A DNA stretch of 32,038 bases from IMG/VR virus record IMGVR_UViG_2778261509_000010, positions 1 through 32,038 of that record; one strand, written 5' to 3'. The position numbers and the translations under genes were made by a program. This document shows, piece after piece, positions 2,583 through 15,484 of this stretch; within the stretch, counting starts at the first letter, position 1; every line of letters begins with the position of its first letter. This stretch comes from a virus. Taxonomy: Duplodnaviria; Heunggongvirae; Uroviricota; Caudoviricetes. The notes beneath the pieces were generated by a model, which saw only the letters and a list, made by a program, of their open reading frames with translations, searched no databases and was not told where the DNA came from.

Positions 2583-3079
2583 CAGTGATGACGCTCAATC
2601 TCGTTGAAAAACAGCCAGCAACTATGCGCCGGATAATTGGTAAGCATCTGGCCGTCCCTCGCTGGCAGGAGACATGCGATTATTATAATCAGATGATGGA
2701 ACGCGAACGGCTAACGGTTTGCTTTCATGCGCAGTTAAAACAGCGTCACGCAACGATGCGTTTTGAAGAAATGAACGACGTCGAACGTGAACGACTGGTT
2801 TGTGCAATTGATGAATTGCGTGGGGCATTCTCAAAACGCCGTCAGGTTGGCGCAAGTGAGTATGCATATATTAGTTTTTTAACAGTCAGTCAGCGCCGTA
2901 CTTTATTTATGCACGCACGACTGACAGAAAAAGAATTTAACCAGCCATACTGGCGAATTAATGAGGAATCATGTTACTGGCGTGATGCTTTATTCCGTGC
3001 ATTACGTGAATTATTCAGTCTGTTTGAGTATGCACCGACAATTCTGACATCGGTAAAACCAGAGCAATATCTGCATTAA
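2579..3079 (+). CDS. B: Replication protein B (helicase-loader-like, 166 aa)
   Basis: Position between cox and A; ATG at 2579 is better spaced from GGAGG (2566-2570) than the ATG at 2573. Confidence 0.8.
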   Translation: MTVMTLNLVEKQPATMRRIIGKHLAVPRWQETCDYYNQMMERERLTVCFHAQLKQRHATMRFEEMNDVERERLVCAIDELRGAFSKRRQVGASEYAYISFLTVSQRRTLFMHARLTEKEFNQPYWRINEESCYWRDALFRALRELFSLFEYAPTILTSVKPEQYLH

Positions 3080-3142
3080 GTAATTAACCAGAGTTTTTAA
3101 CGCACTTAATTGTGCGGGGCTTCTTTTTGCCTGGAGAAAGTC

Positions 3143-3893: not shown

Positions 3894-4165
3894 GTATTCG
3901 TATTGAAATTGGCGAACGTTATGTCGTTACCAGTGACAGCTTTCAGTTTATTCTCCACGAGAAAAAGAGAGCGGAAAGCGGTAAAAACGCCGGTCAGGAA
4001 TGGCTGGCAGTGGTTGGTTATTACCCGAAATTAAGCCAGCTCGTTTCCGGCCTGATGCATCACGATATTCTGACCGGAAGCGCAAAGTCTTTTGCTGATT
4101 TAAACGCGCAGGTTGAGCAACTCAGCAGGCGTTGTTCAGAGGCTTTTGGCTCATATGGCCGTTAA
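3890..4165 (+). CDS. Small early hypothetical protein (orf83-like position)
   Basis: ATG at 3890 with GGAGA Shine-Dalgarno; overlaps the start of A. Confidence 0.5.
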   Translation: MSIRIEIGERYVVTSDSFQFILHEKKRAESGKNAGQEWLAVVGYYPKLSQLVSGLMHHDILTGSAKSFADLNAQVEQLSRRCSEAFGSYGR

Positions 4166-6455
4166 AGCCTCCGGGCGTTTTGTCCCTCCGTCAGCATTTG
4201 TTGCAGGCACCGGTAAGGCGTTTACCGGTGCTTATGCATGGAACGCGCCACGCGAGGCTGTCGGGCGCGAAAGACCCCTTACACGTGACGAGATGCGTCA
4301 GGTGCAAGGTGTTTTATCCACGATTAACCGCCTGCCTTACTTTTTGCGCTCGCTGTTTACTTCACGCTATGACTACATCCGGCGCAATAAAAGCCCGGTG
4401 CACGGGTTTTATTTCCTCACATCCACTTTTCAGCGTCGTTTATGGCCGCGCATTGAGCGTGTGAATCAGCGCCATGAAATGAACACCGACGCGTCGTTGC
4501 TGTTTCTGGCAGAGCGTGACCACTATGCGCGCCTGCCGGGAATGAATGACAAGGAGCTGAAAAAGTTTGCCGCCCGTATTTCATCGCAGCTTTTCATGAT
4601 GTATGAGGAACTCAGCGATGCCTGGGTGGATGCGCATGGCGAAAAAGAATCGCTGTTTACGGATGAGGCGCAGGCTCACCTCTATGGTCATGTTGCTGGC
4701 GCTGCACGTGCTTTCAATATTTCCCCTCTCTACTGGAAAAAATACCGTAAAGGACAGATGACCACGAGGCAGGCATATTCTGCCATTGCCCGTCTGTTTA
4801 ACGATGAGTGGTGGACTCATCAGCTTAAAGGCCAGCGTATGCGCTGGCATGAGGCGTTACTGATTGCTGTCGGGGAGGTGAATAAAGACCGTTCTCCTTA
4901 TGCCAGTAAACATGCCATTCGTGATGTGCGTGCACGCCGCCAGGCAAATCTGGAATTTCTTAAATCGTGTGACCTTGAAAACAGGGAAACCGGCGAGCGC
5001 ATCGACCTTATCAGTAAGGTGATGGGCAGTATTTCTAATCCTGAAATTCGCCGGATGGAGCTGATGAACACCATTGCCGGTATTGAGCGTTACGCCGCCG
5101 CAGAGGGTGATGTGGGGATGTTTATCACGCTGACCACGCCGTCAAAGTATCACCCGACACGTCAGGTCGGAAAAGGCGAAAGTAAAACCGTCCAGCTTAA
5201 TCACGGCTGGAATGATGAGGCATTTAATCCAAAGGATGCGCAGCGTTATCTCTGCCGTATCTGGAGCCTGATGCGCACGGCATTCAAGGATAATGATTTA
5301 CAGGTCTACGGTTTGCGTGTCGTCGAGCCACACCACGACGGAACGCCGCACTGGCATATGATGCTTTTTTGTAATCCACGCCAGCGTAACCAGATTATCG
5401 AAATCATGCGTCGCTATGCGCTCAAAGAGGATGGCGACGAAAGAGGAGCCGCGCGAAACCGTTTTCAGGCGAAACACCTTAACCGGGGCGGTGCTGCGGG
5501 GTATATCGCGAAATACATCTCAAAAAATATCGACGGATATGCACTGGATGGTCAGCTCGATAATGATACCGGCAGACCGCTGAAAGACACTGCCGCGGCT
5601 GTTACCGCATGGGCGTCAACGTGGCGCATCCCGCAATTTAAAACGGTTGGTCTGCCGACAATGGGGGCTTACCGTGAACTACGCAAATTGCCTCGCGGCG
5701 TCAGCATTGCTGATGAGTTTGACGAGCGCGTCGAGGCTGCACGCGCCGCCGCAGACAGTGGTGATTTTGCGTTGTATATCAGCGCGCAGGGTGGGGCAAA
5801 TGTCCCGCGCGATTGTCAGACTGTCAGGGTCGCCCGTAGCCCGTCGGATGACGTTAACGAGTATGAGGAAGAAGTCGAGAGAGTGGTCGGCATTTACGCG
5901 CCGCATCTCGGCGCGCGTCATATTCATATCACCAGAACGACGGACTGGCGCATTGTGCCGAAAGTTCCGGTCGTTGAGCCTTTGACTTTAAAAAGCGGCA
6001 TCGCCGCGCCTCGGAGTCCTGTCAATAACTGTGGAAAGCTCACCGATGGTGATACTTCGTTACCGGCTCCCACACCTTCTGAACACGCCGCAGCAGTGCT
6101 TAATCTGGTTGATGACGGTGTTATCGAATGGAGTGACCCGGAGGTTGTGAGGGCGCTCAGAGGTGCATTAAAATGCGGACTGAGAACACCAAATCGTCAG
6201 CAAAGAAACGGAAGTCCGTTAAAACCGCATGAAATAGCGCCATCAGCCAGGCTGACCAGGTCGGAACGATTGCAAATTACCCGTATTCGCGTTGATCTTG
6301 CTCAGAACGGTATCAGACCTCAGCGATGGGAGCTTGAGTCGCTGGCGCGTGGGGCAACCGTAAATTATGACGGGAAAAAATTCACGTATCCGGTCGCTGA
6401 TGAGTGGCCGGGATATTCAACTATAACAGAGTGGAATCAATTTGATGACGGGTAA
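4155..6455 (+). CDS. A: Rolling-circle replication initiator A (HUH endonuclease)
   Basis: HUH-like motif PHWHMMLF and paired tyrosines in AGYIAKYISKNIDGY; ATG at 4155 preferred (the ORF-track start at 4113 is a TTG). Confidence 0.9.
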   Translation: MAVKASGRFVPPSAFVAGTGKAFTGAYAWNAPREAVGRERPLTRDEMRQVQGVLSTINRLPYFLRSLFTSRYDYIRRNKSPVHGFYFLTSTFQRRLWPRIERVNQRHEMNTDASLLFLAERDHYARLPGMNDKELKKFAARISSQLFMMYEELSDAWVDAHGEKESLFTDEAQAHLYGHVAGAARAFNISPLYWKKYRKGQMTTRQAYSAIARLFNDEWWTHQLKGQRMRWHEALLIAVGEVNKDRSPYASKHAIRDVRARRQANLEFLKSCDLENRETGERIDLISKVMGSISNPEIRRMELMNTIAGIERYAAAEGDVGMFITLTTPSKYHPTRQVGKGESKTVQLNHGWNDEAFNPKDAQRYLCRIWSLMRTAFKDNDLQVYGLRVVEPHHDGTPHWHMMLFCNPRQRNQIIEIMRRYALKEDGDERGAARNRFQAKHLNRGGAAGYIAKYISKNIDGYALDGQLDNDTGRPLKDTAAAVTAWASTWRIPQFKTVGLPTMGAYRELRKLPRGVSIADEFDERVEAARAAADSGDFALYISAQGGANVPRDCQTVRVARSPSDDVNEYEEEVERVVGIYAPHLGARHIHITRTTDWRIVPKVPVVEPLTLKSGIAAPRSPVNNCGKLTDGDTSLPAPTPSEHAAAVLNLVDDGVIEWSDPEVVRALRGALKCGLRTPNRQQRNGSPLKPHEIAPSARLTRSERLQITRIRVDLAQNGIRPQRWELESLARGATVNYDGKKFTYPVADEWPGYSTITEWNQFDDG

Positions 6456-6713: not shown

Positions 6714-6872
6714 GCCGATTTCCTGTGATTGGTTTTCGTTATGCACTCTTTTCTGAAGAGATTAACTACTGATAGACTCAGGTTGGATGTCAGAATCGCT
6801 ATAGATTTCTTGCTATATATGTATTTTTCAATGAAAATGATCTCTGATTTAAACTGTAGTAAGGTGATTGGT

Positions 6873-7361
6873 ATGGATGGTTTATGGGAAAAAATATCGT
6901 CATATAATATATTTAATAATCTTTTTCCAGGTGCTCTTTTTATTTATCTTCTTGAGAGAATGACGAAGATCGTTTTATCTGGCGATGATTTAATAAAAAA
7001 TGTTGTCCTCTATTATTTTGTTGGCTTAGTCATTGGCCGGATTGGTTCTATCGTATTGGAACCTTTTTTAAAACTATCGCGTTTGATTAAGTTTGCTCCT
7101 TATAAAGATTATGTGTCAGCATGTGGTGTGGATGGAAAAATTGAAACTTTGCAAGAGATTGCGAATATGTATAGGACGATATTTTCAATGTCAATTATTC
7201 TTTTGGCGACATTGTGCGTTGTAGGACGGTTTACTGGCGAGACATATGGCTTATCTAAAATAACGTTGGCGGTTTTTGCTATTTTGTTTGTTGTCTCATA
7301 TATTAAACAAATAAGATACATAATATATAGAGTAAATGCTGTTAATAATAAGCTGCCGTAA
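6873..7361 (+). CDS. Multi-pass inner-membrane protein, cargo gene (about 4 TM segments)
   Basis: ATG at 6873 with AAGGTG Shine-Dalgarno 6 nt upstream; ORF is open from a TTG at 6729 (ATG at 6741 also possible). Hydrophobic segments FPGALFIYLL, VVLYYFVGLVIGRIGSIVL, IFSMSIILLATLCVVG, ITLAVFAILFVVSYI; strongly AT-rich. Confidence 0.6.
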   Translation: MDGLWEKISSYNIFNNLFPGALFIYLLERMTKIVLSGDDLIKNVVLYYFVGLVIGRIGSIVLEPFLKLSRLIKFAPYKDYVSACGVDGKIETLQEIANMYRTIFSMSIILLATLCVVGRFTGETYGLSKITLAVFAILFVVSYIKQIRYIIYRVNAVNNKLP

Positions 7362-7371
7362 GGCAGCTTTT
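7351..7371. terminator. Bidirectional intrinsic terminator between convergent cargo genes
   Basis: Hairpin AGCTGCC-GTAA-GGCAGCT overlapping the plus-gene stop, followed by TTTT on plus and an AT-rich tract on minus. Confidence 0.5.
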
Positions 7372-7374
7372 GAA

Positions 7375-8466
7375 TTATTCTTCGGTTCTATAGTTACTAA
7401 TGTATGATCGTGGAGTGGCTGTTTTCCATCCTGCCCTTTCAGGAGCATTATAAAAATGGTACTTACCAAGCCCCTCGGTGGCGATAACTTTCGCTCCTCG
7501 TCGAGTAAAGGCATTAATTACAGCTTGATGGGGATGTTTATCTGAACCTGGGGCACATGATACAAATGCGGTTATCTCCCTTTTTTCGCCTTCATTTACA
7601 ATGTTACCAACAAGTTTATCGAGAACATCAGGGCCTACATTTCTCCGGCTACCATGATGAGGTACTTGAATGAATCTTAATGATTCTTTATTAATGTATT
7701 GGGAGGCTTGATCTAAGGCTGTTATACCAGCATCGCCAGTGAACACTAACGTTCTTCCATCAATCTCAAGTTTCAAAATGACACTTGAGTTATTTTGTGC
7801 CGAGGTGGTATCGTCATTATCAATACCTTCATCAGTAAACCATTCAGCAACGTAATCAATAAATTTCTTCGTTTTTTCAACTACAGACTCAAAGACTGCT
7901 TTTAGTACTTCAAATCCAGCTGTATCCTCAGCTTTTTTGGGCATTCTTGCGAAATCAGGTATTAGAGTCTCATAGTAAGATTGGGTTGGCCCGATAACAA
8001 CCAGAGTAGCATTATCCCAGGTCATTCCTTGAAAAGGCTCTTTTATTTCAATTCCTTTTTTTTCCGCTAATTTGACAGCGTCATAAGCTTTTTGTAAGTT
8101 TTCTTTCATTCGATTTGCAATACTGGCATCAGTTATCCTGCCATCTGCAAACTCACTTGCGAGACCTTGATTATGTTCCCAAGGCTTATGAATCCAAAAC
8201 TCTTTTACTTCTGCATTTTCTAGAACAGATGTAAGTCCACCGACGTGGTCACCATCGGGGTGTGTGGAGATAAGCAAGTCAATAGTTTTTGTGCGGTAGT
8301 ATTTTTCAATATGCTCAATGACTTGTTCTCCGGTGCTGGCATATCCTGCATCAATAACGACAACTTTTTGTTCATCTCTTGAACCATGTAGGTTTCCCCA
8401 TCTGATGCAGATCGCATCGCCGCTTTTTTTTTCGCCAACAGCTAGAAAATCAATTTCGTAACCCAT
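7375..8466 (-). CDS. ComEC-like metallo-beta-lactamase-fold hydrolase (putative nuclease), cargo gene (363 aa)
   Basis: MBL motifs STHPDGDHVGG (residues ~67-77), VPHHGS and KHPH, resembling the ComEC C-terminal / Lactamase_B_2 pattern; ATG at 8466 with AAGGA Shine-Dalgarno; AT-rich. Confidence 0.8.
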   Translation of the reverse strand: MGYEIDFLAVGEKKSGDAICIRWGNLHGSRDEQKVVVIDAGYASTGEQVIEHIEKYYRTKTIDLLISTHPDGDHVGGLTSVLENAEVKEFWIHKPWEHNQGLASEFADGRITDASIANRMKENLQKAYDAVKLAEKKGIEIKEPFQGMTWDNATLVVIGPTQSYYETLIPDFARMPKKAEDTAGFEVLKAVFESVVEKTKKFIDYVAEWFTDEGIDNDDTTSAQNNSSVILKLEIDGRTLVFTGDAGITALDQASQYINKESLRFIQVPHHGSRRNVGPDVLDKLVGNIVNEGEKREITAFVSCAPGSDKHPHQAVINAFTRRGAKVIATEGLGKYHFYNAPERAGWKTATPRSYISNYRTEE

Positions 8467-8628
8467 TCCATATCCTTATTAAACTGTGAATTAACATGAA
8501 TCCAAGATGTTAAATCATATGGATAATAACGCAACTTTTCCGCAGTAAATACTGTGAGCGGATTTAATCTCGTCAGAACTAAAAGCAAGTAGTGTGACGA
8601 GGGACAATGAGTCTCTTTGGGGCGTTGG

Positions 8629-9168
8629 CTATGACACTGACGCAACCAGATTAACGCCGTGAGTCAGCAGATTTGTAATCACACCGGCAATGACCCCAGG
8701 AGTCCCATCTTTCACCGCACTGATCACTTTATCCCCCATCGTTTCATTTCCACCAAGCACCTCGGGTTTTTTGTTAAGAACTGTGAGCGCTTTTTCAGTA
8801 AGTCGAACATCGTAAAAATACGACTGATGGTCTGTGTTGTACTGAATGTACCCGTTTTCACAGAGAAAATTGAATGTACCTTCAACCACACTACGCAACT
8901 GATTTAACACTTTCATTTCTGGTGAGTTAAGTTGGTCAAAGTAGTCATCAGGTAGCGCGGCGTTAAATTTGTCGTAGTTAATCACCTGTGGTACGGGAAA
9001 ATTTTCCCATAGTACTGCAAAGATTTCCGCCGTTTGTTGGTTAAATAAATCGAGATTTTTCGACATGCAAAATTCCATTTCTTTTGATAATGAGTGGGTT
9101 AAACGCTGGACGAGGCAGATTACCACTCTGGCACAAAACAATGATCTTAGTTCACGCGAAGTTGACAT
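8629..9168 (-). CDS. Hypothetical cargo protein with Gly-rich hydrophobic C-terminus (start uncertain, 145-179 aa)
   Basis: ORF open from ATG at 9168; alternative ATG at 9066 (MSKNLDLF...). C-terminal GTPGVIAGVITNLLTHGVNLVASVS looks like a membrane-interacting tail. No family recognised. Confidence 0.55.
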   Translation of the reverse strand: MSTSRELRSLFCARVVICLVQRLTHSLSKEMEFCMSKNLDLFNQQTAEIFAVLWENFPVPQVINYDKFNAALPDDYFDQLNSPEMKVLNQLRSVVEGTFNFLCENGYIQYNTDHQSYFYDVRLTEKALTVLNKKPEVLGGNETMGDKVISAVKDGTPGVIAGVITNLLTHGVNLVASVS

Positions 9169-9259
9169 ATATACCGATAAGCTGGTTGCGCAGGCAACTA
9201 GCGTAGAACTCGCTCAGGTCATCAAGATGCTATTGAATTATATTCGAATGCACAAATAA
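9065..9259 (+). CDS. Possible small protein (64 aa), divergent from and overlapping the minus-strand cargo ORF
   Basis: ATG-initiated ORF; a plus-strand intrinsic terminator lies downstream at 9399-9425; no obvious Shine-Dalgarno. Conflicts with the 5' extension of the 8629-9168 ORF. Confidence 0.25.
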   Translation: MQNSISFDNEWVKRWTRQITTLAQNNDLSSREVDIYTDKLVAQATSVELAQVIKMLLNYIRMHK

Positions 9260-9398
9260 AATGATCTGTATCAATCTGTTAGGTGTCGTTTGTAAAAATG
9301 TGTGGACACGATTGTTCTGCTAATTGTTGTCAACATGTGCGTCAACAGTGAGATTGGTGCATTGCGCGGCCAGTGACAACTTTAAAAATTGGCCAAAA

Positions 9399-9425
9399 CC
9401 GGCACTATGAATGCCGTTTTTTTTG
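9399..9425 (+). terminator. Intrinsic terminator (plus strand)
   Basis: Stem CGGCA / TGCCG with 7-nt loop followed by T8 (9417-9424). Confidence 0.5.
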
Positions 9426-9582
9426 TGTTTTTTTCTGCGATACTCCTATTTTTAGCAGTGCATGCAATATGTGCGTGGTTTTGCATGTGCCTAAGTTGCA
9501 TGTTCTGGCTGTGCACCGTCAGGACGGACGCCCCTCAAAAGTGGTAATGCACCTGCATTAAAACCGACCTATGAAGCGGGCG

Positions 9583-9601
9583 GGCGAGGCGGGGAAAGCA
9601 C
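9583..9601. other. cos: cos-like cohesive-end sequence (GGCGAGGCGGGGAAAGCAC)
   Basis: 19-mer identical to the P2 cohesive-end sequence as I recall it; correct position between the cargo region and Q. Confidence 0.6.
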
Positions 9602-9743
9602 TGCGCGCTGGCGGTGGTGCTGATTTTATTTTTTCAGCGTCTCAGCGCGTCGTGACGGCGCTTAGTCTACCCGTTGTGGTGTTGGTGTGTCTGCGGGGTG
9701 TTTTGTGCGGTGGTGAGCGTGTGAGGGCGTGATGACGGGATGT

Positions 9744-9766
9744 AAAAAAGCCGCCCGCAGGCGGCG
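9744..9766 (-). terminator. Intrinsic terminator after Q (minus strand)
   Basis: GCCGCC-TGCG-GGCGGC hairpin followed by a T-run on the minus strand, immediately downstream of the Q stop. Confidence 0.6.
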
Positions 9767-9770
9767 ATGT

Positions 9771-10805
9771 TCAGCCGTTGTCAGTGTCCAGTGAGTAGTT
9801 TTTAAAGCGGATGACATCCTGACCGAGCCAGCCGTTTATTTCCCGAATCCTGTCCTGTAACGGGATAAGCTCATTGCGGACAAAGACCTTTGCCACTTTC
9901 TCAATATCTCCCAGCGACCCGACATTCTCCGGCTTGCCGCCCATCAACTGAAAGGGGATGCGGTGCGCGTCCAGCAGGTCAGCGGCGCTGGCTTTTTTGA
10001 TATTAAAAAAATCGTCTTTCGTCGCCACTTCACTGAGCGGGATAATTTTAATGCCGTCGGCTTTTCCCTGCGGGGCGTAGAGAAACAGATTTTTAAAGTT
10101 GTTGCGGCCTTTCGACTTAACCATGTTTTCGCGAAGCATTTCGATATCGTTGCGATCCTGCACGGCATCGGTGACGTACATGATGTATCCGGCATGTGCG
10201 CCGTTTTCGTAATACTTGCGGCGGAACAGCGTGGCCGATTCATTCAGCCAGGCAGAGTTAAGGGCGCTGAGATATTCCGGCAGGCCGTACAGCTCCTGAT
10301 TAATATCCGGCTCCAGCAGGTGAAACACGGAACCGGGCGCGAAGGCTGTCGGCTCGTTGAAGGACGGCACCCACCAGTAAACATCCTCTTCCACACCACG
10401 GCGGGTATATTTTGCCGGTGAGGTTTCCAGTCTGATGACTTTACCGGTAGTGCTGTAACGCTTTTCCAGAAACGCATTACCGAACACCAGAAAATCCAGC
10501 ACAAAGCGGCTGAAATCCTGCTGGGAAAGCCACGGATGCGGGATAAATGTCGAGGCCAGAATATTACGTTTGACGTAAATCGGTGAGCTGTGATGCACGG
10601 CAGCACGCAGGCTTTTTGCCAGACCGGTAAAGCTGACCGGTGGCTCATACCATCTGCCGTTACTGATGCACTCGACGTAATCCAGAATGTCACGGCGGTC
10701 GAGTACCGGCACCGGCTCACCAAAGGTGAATGCCTCCATTTTCGGGGCGCTGGCGGTCATTGTTTTTGCCGCAGGTTGCGGTGTTTTCCCTTTTTTCTTG
10801 CTCAT
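9771..10805 (-). CDS. Q: Portal protein (344 aa)
   Basis: Position and size; start overlaps the P stop (ATGA). Confidence 0.9.
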   Translation of the reverse strand: MSKKKGKTPQPAAKTMTASAPKMEAFTFGEPVPVLDRRDILDYVECISNGRWYEPPVSFTGLAKSLRAAVHHSSPIYVKRNILASTFIPHPWLSQQDFSRFVLDFLVFGNAFLEKRYSTTGKVIRLETSPAKYTRRGVEEDVYWWVPSFNEPTAFAPGSVFHLLEPDINQELYGLPEYLSALNSAWLNESATLFRRKYYENGAHAGYIMYVTDAVQDRNDIEMLRENMVKSKGRNNFKNLFLYAPQGKADGIKIIPLSEVATKDDFFNIKKASAADLLDAHRIPFQLMGGKPENVGSLGDIEKVAKVFVRNELIPLQDRIREINGWLGQDVIRFKNYSLDTDNG

Positions 10806-12577
10806 CAGTAAAACTCCAGAATGGTGGATGTCAGCGGGGTGCTGATACCGGCGGTGAGTGGCTCATTTAACAGGGCGTGCATGGTCGCCCAGGCGAGGTC
10901 GGCGTGGCTGGCTTCCTCGCTGCGGCTGGCCTCATAGGTGGCACTGCGTCCGCTGCTGGTCATGGTCTTGCGGATAGCCATAAACGAGCTGGTGATGTCG
11001 GTGGCGCTGACGTCATATTCCAGACAGCCACGGCGGATAACGTCTTTTGCCTTGAGCACCATTGCGGTTTTCATTTCCGGCGTGTAGCGGATATCGCGCG
11101 CGGCGGGATAGAACGAGCGCACGAGCTGGAACACGCCGACACCGAGGCCGGTGGCATCAATACCGATGTATTCGACGTTATATTTTTCGGTGAGTTTGCG
11201 GATGGATTCAGCCTGAGTGGCAAAGTCCATGCCTTTCCACTGGTGACGCTCAAGTATTCTGAATTTGCCACCGGCCACCACCGGCGGTGCCAGCACCACG
11301 CATCCGGCGCTGTCGCCACGGTGTGACGGGTCGTAACCAATCCATACCGGGCGGGAACCGAACGGATTTGCGGCAAAGGGTGCATAGTCTTCCCATTCTT
11401 CCAGCGTGTCGACCATGCAGCGTTGCAGCTCCTCGAACGGGAACACCGACGCCTTGTCGTCAACAAATTCACACATGAACAGGTTTTTAAAATCGTCGGC
11501 GCTGTTTTCGCGTTTGAGCTGCTCAATGTCGAACAGCGTGCAGCCACCTTTCAGGGCGTCCTCAATGGTGACAATCTGCCGCCACTGGCCGTCCGCACAG
11601 AGAAGACCACCGGCAAGGGCGTTATGACTGACGTCGATTTCCACGCGTTCGGCGGCGCTGGCGCGTCCCCGGTTGAACAGTTCACCTGACCAGAACGGGT
11701 AGGCGTCGTGCGCCAGCGTGGACGGGGTGGAGAAATAGGTCGAGCGCAGGTGACTCTGTGAGGCCATACCTGATGCTACCTTACGCAGTACCTGAAAATT
11801 CGGAATCCAGAAAATCTCGTCGACGTACAGGTCGCCGTTATGGCTCTGTGCGGTGTTGGAGTTGGTGCCGAGAAAAATCAGTTTTGCACCGTTATTGCCC
11901 AGGACAATCGGGTCACCGGTCAGGTCAACGTCAACCAGCCGGGCAAAGGCAATGATGTATTCGCGGAACACATACGCCTGCGTTTTACTGGCCGACAGAA
12001 AAATCTGGTTATGGCCGGTTTTCAGGGCGCGCAGCAGCGCCTCGCGGGAAAAATAAAACGTCGCGCCAATCTGGCGGGATTTCAGGATATCGCGGATGCG
12101 GTGCTCAAGCCCGGCGCGATACCAGTGCAACTGATAGTCGAAAGACTGCTCAAAGAAAATCTGCTCCAGCTTTTCGATGGCCTCGTCACTGAAAAAATTC
12201 TTTTTCGGTTTGCGACGCCCGCCTTTGTTGCGGTTAGCGACGTTCGGATTAAGGTCTGCTTCGTTGCCGGTCTGGCTGTAGCGGTTTACCCGTGCCAGTC
12301 GTTCAATCTGGCGTCCGAGCAGGTCAATTTCCTTGAAGTCACCGCCGGTTTTCTGCGGTTTGATGATGAGCTGAGTCAGCCGCGCTTCCAGACTCATTTC
12401 GACACGGCTGATGGGGGCAACGCTGTCCCAGCCGTCGCGCTGTTTCCAGCTCTGCACCGTCGGGCGTTTCATCTGCAACATGGCGGCAATCTGCGGCACG
12501 GAAAACCCCTGCCAGTACAGCAGCGCCGCCTGACGACGCGGGTCGTGTAAAAGAGTGGTGTCTGTGGTGATGGTCAT
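10805..12577 (-). CDS. P: Terminase large (ATPase) subunit (590 aa)
   Basis: ATG at 12577 (MTITTDTTLL...) with GAGGT Shine-Dalgarno; the ORF-track start at 12607 adds 10 codons. Confidence 0.9.
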   Translation of the reverse strand: MTITTDTTLLHDPRRQAALLYWQGFSVPQIAAMLQMKRPTVQSWKQRDGWDSVAPISRVEMSLEARLTQLIIKPQKTGGDFKEIDLLGRQIERLARVNRYSQTGNEADLNPNVANRNKGGRRKPKKNFFSDEAIEKLEQIFFEQSFDYQLHWYRAGLEHRIRDILKSRQIGATFYFSREALLRALKTGHNQIFLSASKTQAYVFREYIIAFARLVDVDLTGDPIVLGNNGAKLIFLGTNSNTAQSHNGDLYVDEIFWIPNFQVLRKVASGMASQSHLRSTYFSTPSTLAHDAYPFWSGELFNRGRASAAERVEIDVSHNALAGGLLCADGQWRQIVTIEDALKGGCTLFDIEQLKRENSADDFKNLFMCEFVDDKASVFPFEELQRCMVDTLEEWEDYAPFAANPFGSRPVWIGYDPSHRGDSAGCVVLAPPVVAGGKFRILERHQWKGMDFATQAESIRKLTEKYNVEYIGIDATGLGVGVFQLVRSFYPAARDIRYTPEMKTAMVLKAKDVIRRGCLEYDVSATDITSSFMAIRKTMTSSGRSATYEASRSEEASHADLAWATMHALLNEPLTAGISTPLTSTILEFY

Positions 12578-12750
12578 GAATACCTCGCCGTGATGAATAC
12601 ACGGCAAGGCTACTGAGTCGCGCCCCGCGATTCGCTAAGGTGCTGTTGTGTCAGTGATAAGCCATCCGGGACTGATGGCGGAGGATGCGCATCGTCGGGA
12701 AACTGATGCCGACATGTGACTCCTCTAATCACTATTCAGGACTCCTGACA
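12578..12750. promoter_or_regulatory. Divergent late promoter region (P leftward, O rightward)
   Basis: Non-coding region between divergent late operons; no consensus element could be pinned down by eye. Confidence 0.4.
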
Positions 12751-14740: not shown

Positions 14741-15484
14741 ATGACGAGTCCCGCACAGCGCCACATGATGCGGGTCTCGGCAGCGATGACCGCGCAGCGG
14801 GAAGCCGCCCCGCTGCGACATGCAACTGTCTATGAGCAGATGCTGGTTAAGCTCGCCGCAGACCAGCGCACACTGAAAGCGATTTATTCAAAAGAGCTGA
14901 AGGCCGCGAAAAAACGCGAACTGCTGCCGTTCTGGTTGCCGTGGGTGAACGGCGTGCTGGAGCAGGGCAAAGGTGCACAGGATGACATTCTGATGACGGT
15001 CATGCTGTGGCGTCTGGATACCGGCGATATTGCCGGTGCGCTGGAGATTGCCCGTTATGCCCTGAAGTACGGTCTGACCATGCCGGGTAAACACCGCCGC
15101 ACCCCGCCGTACATGTTCACCGAGGAGGTGGCGCTCGCGGCCATGCGTGCTCACGCTGCCGGTGAGTCTGTGGATACCCGCCTGCTGACGGAGACCCTTG
15201 AACTGACCGCCACGGCTGACATGCCTGATGAAGTGCGCGCAAAGCTGCACAAAATCACCGGTCTGTTTCTGCGTGACGCTGGTGATGCCGCCGGTGCGCT
15301 GGCTCACCTGCAACGTGCGACACAGCTCGACTGTCAGGCAGGCGTCAAAAAAGAGATTGAACGACTGGAGCGGGAACTGAAACCGAAGCCGGAGCCGCAG
15401 CCAAAAGCGGCCACCCGCGCCCCGCGTAAGACCCGGAGTGCGATACCGGCAAAACGTGGACGCCCGAAAAAGAAAGCCAGTTAA
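14741..15484 (+). CDS. M: Terminase small (endonuclease) subunit (247 aa)
   Basis: Position and size; basic C-terminal tail (RAPRKTRSAIPAKRGRPKKKAS). Confidence 0.85.
   Translation: MTSPAQRHMMRVSAAMTAQREAAPLRHATVYEQMLVKLAADQRTLKAIYSKELKAAKKRELLPFWLPWVNGVLEQGKGAQDDILMTVMLWRLDTGDIAGALEIARYALKYGLTMPGKHRRTPPYMFTEEVALAAMRAHAAGESVDTRLLTETLELTATADMPDEVRAKLHKITGLFLRDAGDAAGALAHLQRATQLDCQAGVKKEIERLERELKPKPEPQPKAATRAPRKTRSAIPAKRGRPKKKAS

Follow-up and report, generated by a model that had tools for sequence, protein, structure and literature searches.

The window analysed here, the whole stretch of 32,038 nucleotides, carries a P2-like (Peduovirus) prophage, as indicated by Pfam hits for GPA, portal, and large and small terminase across its length. 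The integrase-side region occupies the left end and is followed by replication gene A (4113-6455, Pfam Phage_GPA), a cargo block at 6729-9259 and the cos region. The portal gene Q (9771-10805, minus strand, Pfam Phage_portal) adjoins cos on the right and encodes a protein with 99.1% identity to P2 gpQ. It is followed by the large terminase gene P (10805-12607, minus strand, Pfam Terminase_6N/6C), the product of which is 100% identical to P2 gpP over 590 aa. In its longest version the open reading frame of this gene begins with a TTG, 10 codons before the start annotated in P2, giving 600 aa instead of 590 aa. Residues 22-79 of gpP match Pfam Terminase_5/HTH_23 and form an N-terminal helix-turn-helix, an unusual feature for a large terminase. 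Scaffold and capsid genes lie between P and the small terminase gene M (14741-15484, plus strand, Pfam Phage_term_smal, E=3e-48), which encodes a protein identical to P2 gpM at 243 of 247 positions (98%). A search of PDB sequences with gpM and gpP returned no relatives. The chromosome of E. coli GZ04-0086 is 100% identical to the window over 9260-9620, and the RefSeq annotation of that locus agrees with the gene assignments given here.

The cargo block occupies the known P2 hotspot between gpA and cos; the hotspot for defence genes bordering cos in P2 was described by Rousset et al. (PMC9122126). Two of its genes, at 6729-7361 (plus strand) and 7375-8466 (minus strand), match the PADLOC candidate defence system PDC-M48 (PDC-M48A, E=2e-50; PDC-M48B, E=7e-101). 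RefSeq names this pair a phosphohistidine phosphatase and a ComEC/Rec2-family metallo-beta-lactamase-fold protein. Closer to cos lies a divergent gene pair, 8629-9168 (minus strand) and 9065-9259 (plus strand), belonging to phrog_2266 and phrog_2454, for which no function is assigned. The same pair accompanies the 186-type cos arm in Midge, SW9 and one Klebsiella phage, and its 64-aa gene is left without annotation in the identical RefSeq locus.

The 19-nt sequence GGCGAGGCGGGGAAAGCAC, which is the nick-to-nick segment that forms the cohesive ends, lies at 9583-9601 on the plus strand and has no other exact match in the window, where 0.02 occurrences would be expected with up to three mismatches. 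It is identical letter for letter to the annotated cosL (1-19) and cosR (33575-33593) of P2 (RefSeq NC_001895), so the match to the P2 cohesive end given in the original prediction is exact. We number positions from the first G of the 19-mer, taken as 0. The conserved 55-bp cos core then extends from -29 to +25 (9554-9608, plus strand); it opens with a TGCAT (TGCATTAAAACC...) and closes with TGCGCGC. The alignment with the cos regions of P2 and 186 that had been proposed as a check showed 52/55 and 49/55 identical positions in this core, and P4 likewise shares 49/55. The core was carried by 2140 of 5426 complete E. coli genomes (about 40%), the whole 9260-9620 segment by only 60.

By its sequence, 9583-9601 is a P2-type cos site of an ordinary and already known kind. 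It is placed between gene A with its cargo and the portal gene Q, in a prophage with P2-type terminase genes. On induction, the P2-type terminase (gpM and gpP) would cut here with a 19-nt stagger between the strands, so that 5' cohesive ends are formed and the genome is packaged. In P2 the packaging substrate consists of monomeric circles, and the minimal functional cos fragment has reportedly been put at about 125 bp. Calling cos at this position sets the predicted ends of the virion genome and marks the adjoining cargo as a case of the known P2 hotspot. The concept of a 55-bp core is that of Ziermann and Calendar (1990), as cited in PMC9594776 and PMC5694545.

To the left of about -33 the window departs from P2. 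Apart from the TGCAT sites, ungapped identity with P2 is 37/111, whereas identity with 186 over -140 to -30 amounts to 81/111. This left arm is 70-78% identical over about 320 bp to the Eganvirus members SW9, SEN1, FSLSP004 and Midge and to Klebsiella prophage-like phages. A mosaic junction can be placed at about 9547-9582: the arm to the left is 186-like, and the last dozen bases before the 19-mer, the 19-mer itself and everything to the right are P2-like. This fits recombination at or near cos. An identical left arm recurs in at least three viral contigs and, at ≥99% identity, in 27 E. coli records, which indicates that it is a circulating form.

The left arm further contains an intrinsic-terminator-like hairpin with a T run at 9400-9424 (plus strand), found by a terminator scan and aligning with the annotated 186 terminator t95b. 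Its stem is weak in the window copy. The cargo genes lie on one side of this hairpin and the cos region on the other. Upstream of it, the list of open reading frames shows a small hydrophobic ORF at 9302-9376 (plus strand), which encodes 24 aa from a GTG start (peptide MDTIVLLIVVNMCVNSEIGALRGQ). The versions in relatives are 33 aa long with an ATG start, that of SW9 being MLSLVYENPWTTVFLLIVASCCLNSIIGALRGQ; they occur in SW9 (segment L001, about 1530-1635) and in the viral contigs L045, L046, L081, L106 and L127. The window ORF differs by a 1-nt deletion and by CTG in place of ATG, leaving a 24-aa remnant started by GTG. Translation by hand placed most differences among the relatives at synonymous third codon positions, so the product is probably a genuine small membrane peptide. 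A PHROG search with the ORF at 9302-9376 gave no match. An Rfam scan of 8500-10000 at a permissive threshold returned sub-threshold matches only. The best of these lies at 9270-9354, opposite the small ORF, on the minus strand and is to STnc470, an sRNA of Salmonella. Its 17 bits (E=0.14) are below the gathering threshold of 80, and it is probably due to chance or to distant prophage homology. The stretch 9380-9560 was also considered as coding; the short ORFs annotated there in relatives (such as 'aI protein') span the terminator and the TGCAT sites, are not conserved as ORFs and were dismissed as spurious.

Two sets of short direct repeats had been proposed upstream of the 19-mer, either as terminase recognition elements or as operators of the adjacent cargo genes. 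The first was a set of three GTCAACA or GTGACAAC repeats. The heptamer GTCAACA is indeed present in two exact copies 12 bp apart, at 9329-9335 and 9341-9347, but GTGACAAC, counted as the third repeat (9373-9380), is not the same word and overlaps the stop codon of the small ORF. Even the exact pair is at chance level: the window holds 8 copies against 4.7 expected, and an exact 7-mer repeat within 20 bp arose in 21% of shuffles of 9327-9601. Both copies coincide with Val-Asn codons of the small ORF 9302-9376. Close relatives with this module have not kept the set: in SW9, Midge, SEN1 and the Klebsiella phage, GCCAGTT, GCCAGCA, GCGAGCT or ACCAGCG stands where the window has the first copy, and the third word differs as well. 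In P2 the entire segment is missing despite near-identical packaging genes. Although two exact heptamers at such a short distance drew attention to a possible terminase site or operator, a functional repeat of either type is extremely improbable here. On the alignments, the pair is a set of Val-Asn codons produced by lineage-specific substitutions and no more than chance.

The second set fared differently. The hexamer TGCATG occurs on the plus strand at 9459-9464, 9482-9487 and 9497-9502; the three repeats had thus been recognized correctly, with coordinates (9460-9465, 9483-9488 and 9498-9503) one base too far to the right. With 21 copies on the two strands and 30.7 expected, the word itself is not enriched in the window. 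A group of three on one strand within 44 bp is unusual, at p~0.01 by a rough scan-statistic estimate. The terminator scan had read the first two copies as a hairpin (9461-9477), which we rejected: TGCA is its own reverse complement, so copies of the motif pair with one another as a matter of course.

Comparison with other cos regions gave far stronger evidence and revealed which of these copies follow a family pattern. We collected 120 viral contigs with a P2/186-type 19-mer and set them, together with P2, 186, P4 and the window, in a common orientation relative to cos; HP1, the cos of which is too different, was left out. The left flanks (-350 to -46) were clustered into 53 types sharing no 100-bp alignment, and one representative of each was used. 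The 55-bp core was nearly invariant among these 53 flank types. On the cos strand, TGCAT occurred at -29 in 49/53 types, at -101 (±1) in 43, at -111 (±1) in 42 and at -121 to -124 in 28, and the dominant spacing between copies was 10 bp. In the rest of the -350 to +260 interval the background was about one TGCAT per 10-bp bin for all 53 sequences summed. Within -130 to -92 the pentamer was by far the commonest, with 115 copies against 3.2 expected, and was present in 52 of the 53 types. At least two copies were found there in 44/53 types; 2000 shuffles gave a mean of 0.06 such types and a maximum of 2.

In the window, the canonical sites of this pattern are those at -124 (9459), -101 (9482) and -29 (9554). 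The first distal site (9459-9463, plus strand) falls in the family's -121 to -124 range, where 26-28 of the 53 flank types have an exact copy. The second (-111; 9472-9476, plus strand) is degenerate in the window, reading TGCGT for the TGCAT that is exact in 42/53 types (±1); this TGCGT is a trait of the window lineage. The third (-101; 9482-9486, plus strand) is exact in 43/53 types within ±1 bp. The remaining TGCAT, at -86 (9497-9501, plus strand), is lineage-specific, with a counterpart near -86 in only 1-2 of the 53 types; the third TGCATG of the original prediction is this extra copy and lies outside the family pattern. Next to the core, an ATGCA at -36 (9547-9551, plus strand) and the TGCAT at -29 together make up an inverted pair (ATGCAnnTGCAT). 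Such a pair is common in the family, ATGCA being present in the -40 to -31 bin in 34/53 types. Between array and core, at about -63 to -47 (window positions about 9520-9536), 30-40 of the 53 types share a further, less strongly conserved element, CCAGnnCTGGCGCGG. It reads CCGGCGCGGyCTGAG in P4-likes and is degenerate in the window (CAGGACGGACGCCCC), with a GGCGCGG box at about -53.

The pentamers were conserved in otherwise unrelated surroundings. Mean pairwise identity was 0.56 in the motif columns, compared with 0.29 at -96 to -66 and 0.27 at -160 to -131. The distance from array to core was fixed to ±1 bp, and the 60-70 bp in between were unrelated from one type to the next. P2 itself has TGCAT at -123, -111 and -101 amid sequence that otherwise cannot be aligned with the window. 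The TGCATG set therefore survives in a relative with near-identical packaging genes (gpP 100%, gpQ 99%, gpM 98%), a comparison in which its absence had been named as evidence against a packaging role. Among P4-like satellites all three distal sites were invariant in 18 of 18 distinct sequences, and the spacers varied. Variable cargo begins to the right of +25 in these satellites and to the left of about -130 in the P2-likes; because the cargo boundaries lie on different sides, the unit common to both groups is about -125 to +25. P4 reportedly has only the cos packaging signal in common with P2 (PMC9122126), and its retention of the array argues that the array is tied to packaging and to no neighbouring gene.

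Two further cos types showed the same arrangement with other letters. Ralstonia/Burkholderia-type cos regions (15 flank types) carry YGCATA at -123, -110 and -100 and TGCATAAAAACC at -29, and phiCTX-type regions (26 flank types) carry YGCAGG at -110 and -100 and TGCAGGnnTGCAGAAAAA at -37 and -29. Across the three cos types the layout is constant and the motif switches in step at the distal and the core-proximal sites. Short motif copies are thus kept in a fixed register beside the nick site, independently of the flanking genes, and they change jointly with the motif in the core of each packaging system. Since distal and proximal motifs change together, the simplest reading is a single co-evolving reader for both sets.

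Taken together, we consider it likely from these comparisons that the cos at 9583-9601 is served by the distal TGCAT array as an accessory terminase-loading site resembling lambda cosB, with the GTCAACA pair playing no role. Of the two functions originally offered for the TGCATG repeats, that of terminase recognition elements is the better one in view of the fixed register to cos in 52/53 types, with the qualification that binding is something we infer. The other option, that the repeats are promoter or operator elements for the adjoining cargo genes, is highly improbable. One observation speaks for it: in P2, transcription of old-tin on the minus strand begins at -151/-149, which would place the -35 region of its promoter over the first TGCAT. 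This overlap suggests that cargo promoters can extend over the array and was judged incidental. Against this option, the register to cos is constant over 52 cargo contexts and is the same in P4-like satellites, where the array follows the end of psu. The array tracks cos rather than cargo, being neither fixed in position to a regulated gene nor present only with one. In the window and in 186 it sits downstream of a terminator, which in the window separates it from the cargo genes, and the nearest genes are transcribed towards cos. A promoter scan of 9300-9600 found no promoter-like site.

Two other explanations accept the conservation and account for it differently. In one, the array would be read not by terminase but by a host DNA-binding or DNA-bending protein with a helper role in cos cleavage like that of IHF at lambda I1. 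The ten-base phasing on one helix face would suit an architectural protein, the motif varies with host group (TGCAT in enterics, GCAGG in Pseudomonas-type contigs), and the literature searched reports no terminase binding data. We nevertheless regard a host reader as rather unlikely. The identical motif at -29, within the accepted core, shifts in step with the distal copies, for which one phage-encoded reader is the simplest explanation, and a GCAT-type motif is kept in Ralstonia/Burkholderia-type phages despite very different hosts. A TGCAT-N5-TGCAT site is, moreover, not known to us for any host factor of enterics, which counts against this reading. In the other explanation the array would be kept by descent only, as the diverged edge of the backbone beside a recombination hotspot, and would have no sequence-specific function. 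It does lie exactly at the boundary of the cargo hotspot of Rousset et al. (PMC9122126), and clustering at 100 bp may miss short common ancestry within -130 to -46. Descent alone is still distinctly unlikely, as the pentamers keep their positions to within ±1 bp although some 70 bp of unrelated sequence intervenes, spacers and the next 30 bp are at background identity, and the motif co-varies with the proximal site in the other cos types.

If the array acts as an accessory terminase-loading site, the recognized unit would be larger than the 19-mer and would consist of the 55-bp core (9554-9608) plus the distal same-strand TGCAT array. The distal pentamers, about 10 bp apart and some 100, 110 and 122 bp to the left of the cut (here 9482, the degenerate 9472, and 9459), and the proximal TGCAT at -29 would be read by one DNA-binding module. 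Candidates for this module are gpM and the N-terminal helix-turn-helix of gpP. The spacer of about 70 bp, unconserved but constrained in length, may be bent or wrapped such that array and core cooperate across the bend, and the array would then load terminase in the fashion of lambda cosB. An anchoring site would have to lie to the left of the cut, because all conserved sequence lies left of +25. Depending on the end from which P2 packages its DNA, this would be the side of initiation or of termination.

The array may also have a broader meaning. A tentative and, in our view, doubtful proposal is that every Peduoviridae cos requires the proximal -36/-29 pair and the phased TGCAT copies at -100/-110/-122, which would make up a terminase-loading site not described before. 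The motif of this site would co-evolve with the packaging enzyme (TGCAT, GCATA, GCAGG), and the array would mark both where cos really ends on the left and where the P2 defence-gene hotspot ends on its inner side. The novelty of the array is unproven: the literature searched contained no description of a TGCAT array or of gpM binding sites, and it did not include key primary papers (Ziermann and Calendar 1990). Should the array prove to be a genuine recognition element, the signal needed for P2/P4 packaging would measure about 150 bp (-125 to +25) and not the 55 bp of the core. It would also account for the observation that cargo exchange ends about 130 bp short of cos in P2-likes and starts about 25 bp to its right in P4-likes. 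Indirect experimental support comes from one study, in which P2 cosmids with longer cos flanks, published without their sequences, gave about 10^4-fold better transduction (PMC9594776). The length of the signal has thus shifted yields by orders of magnitude, and an extended signal would matter for the design of P2/P4 cosmids and transducing particles (PMC9594776).

The retron Ec86 prophage of E. coli B was examined as a case that might have lost the array naturally. In E. coli BLR(DE3) (NZ_CP020368.1; segment L135, about 2860-3100) only the first 13 nt of its cos remain (GGCGTGGCGGGGA), with the retron beginning to the right of them, so that, on this sequence, the prophage cannot form a functional cos. 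The TGCAT array to the left is intact in this prophage, and the case consequently gives no test of the necessity of the array. Dodd and Egan are said to have noted in 1996 that retrons replace the DNA between cos and a terminator of a 186-related prophage.

Among characterized systems the closest is P2 cos with its 19-nt 5' cohesive ends. The 19-mer is identical, its place between the gene A/cargo hotspot and portal gene Q is the same, and terminase and portal are near-identical; the window differs in carrying a 186-type left arm. The right end of 186 and of other Eganvirus members has a homologous terminator and TGCAT sites at equal positions, and several of the 186-type relatives share the upstream small-ORF module with the window. 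Unlike the window, 186 has a 19-mer that is two positions off (GGCGTGGCGGGGAAAGCAT), a different right arm, TGCAT instead of TGCGT at -111, and TTGCCCG in place of the -86 copy. For phiCTX, the RefSeq record marks a 'region 3 containing R4, R5, R6 repeats' spanning cos in this P2-like phage; R4-R6 may correspond to elements of the array. The motif in phiCTX-type contigs is YGCAGG/GCAGAAA instead of TGCAT, in the same -110/-100 and -37/-29 layout. In lambda, cosB comprises the sites R3, R2 and R1, which are bound by the small terminase gpNu1, and the IHF site I1. The array shows no sequence similarity to cosB, lies on the opposite side relative to the terminase genes and has no IHF-like site that could be seen in the window. 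Both, however, consist of several short motifs beside the nick site and outside the nicked segment, with a spacing that suggests bending or wrapping, and by this analogy the TGCAT array may anchor terminase as cosB does.
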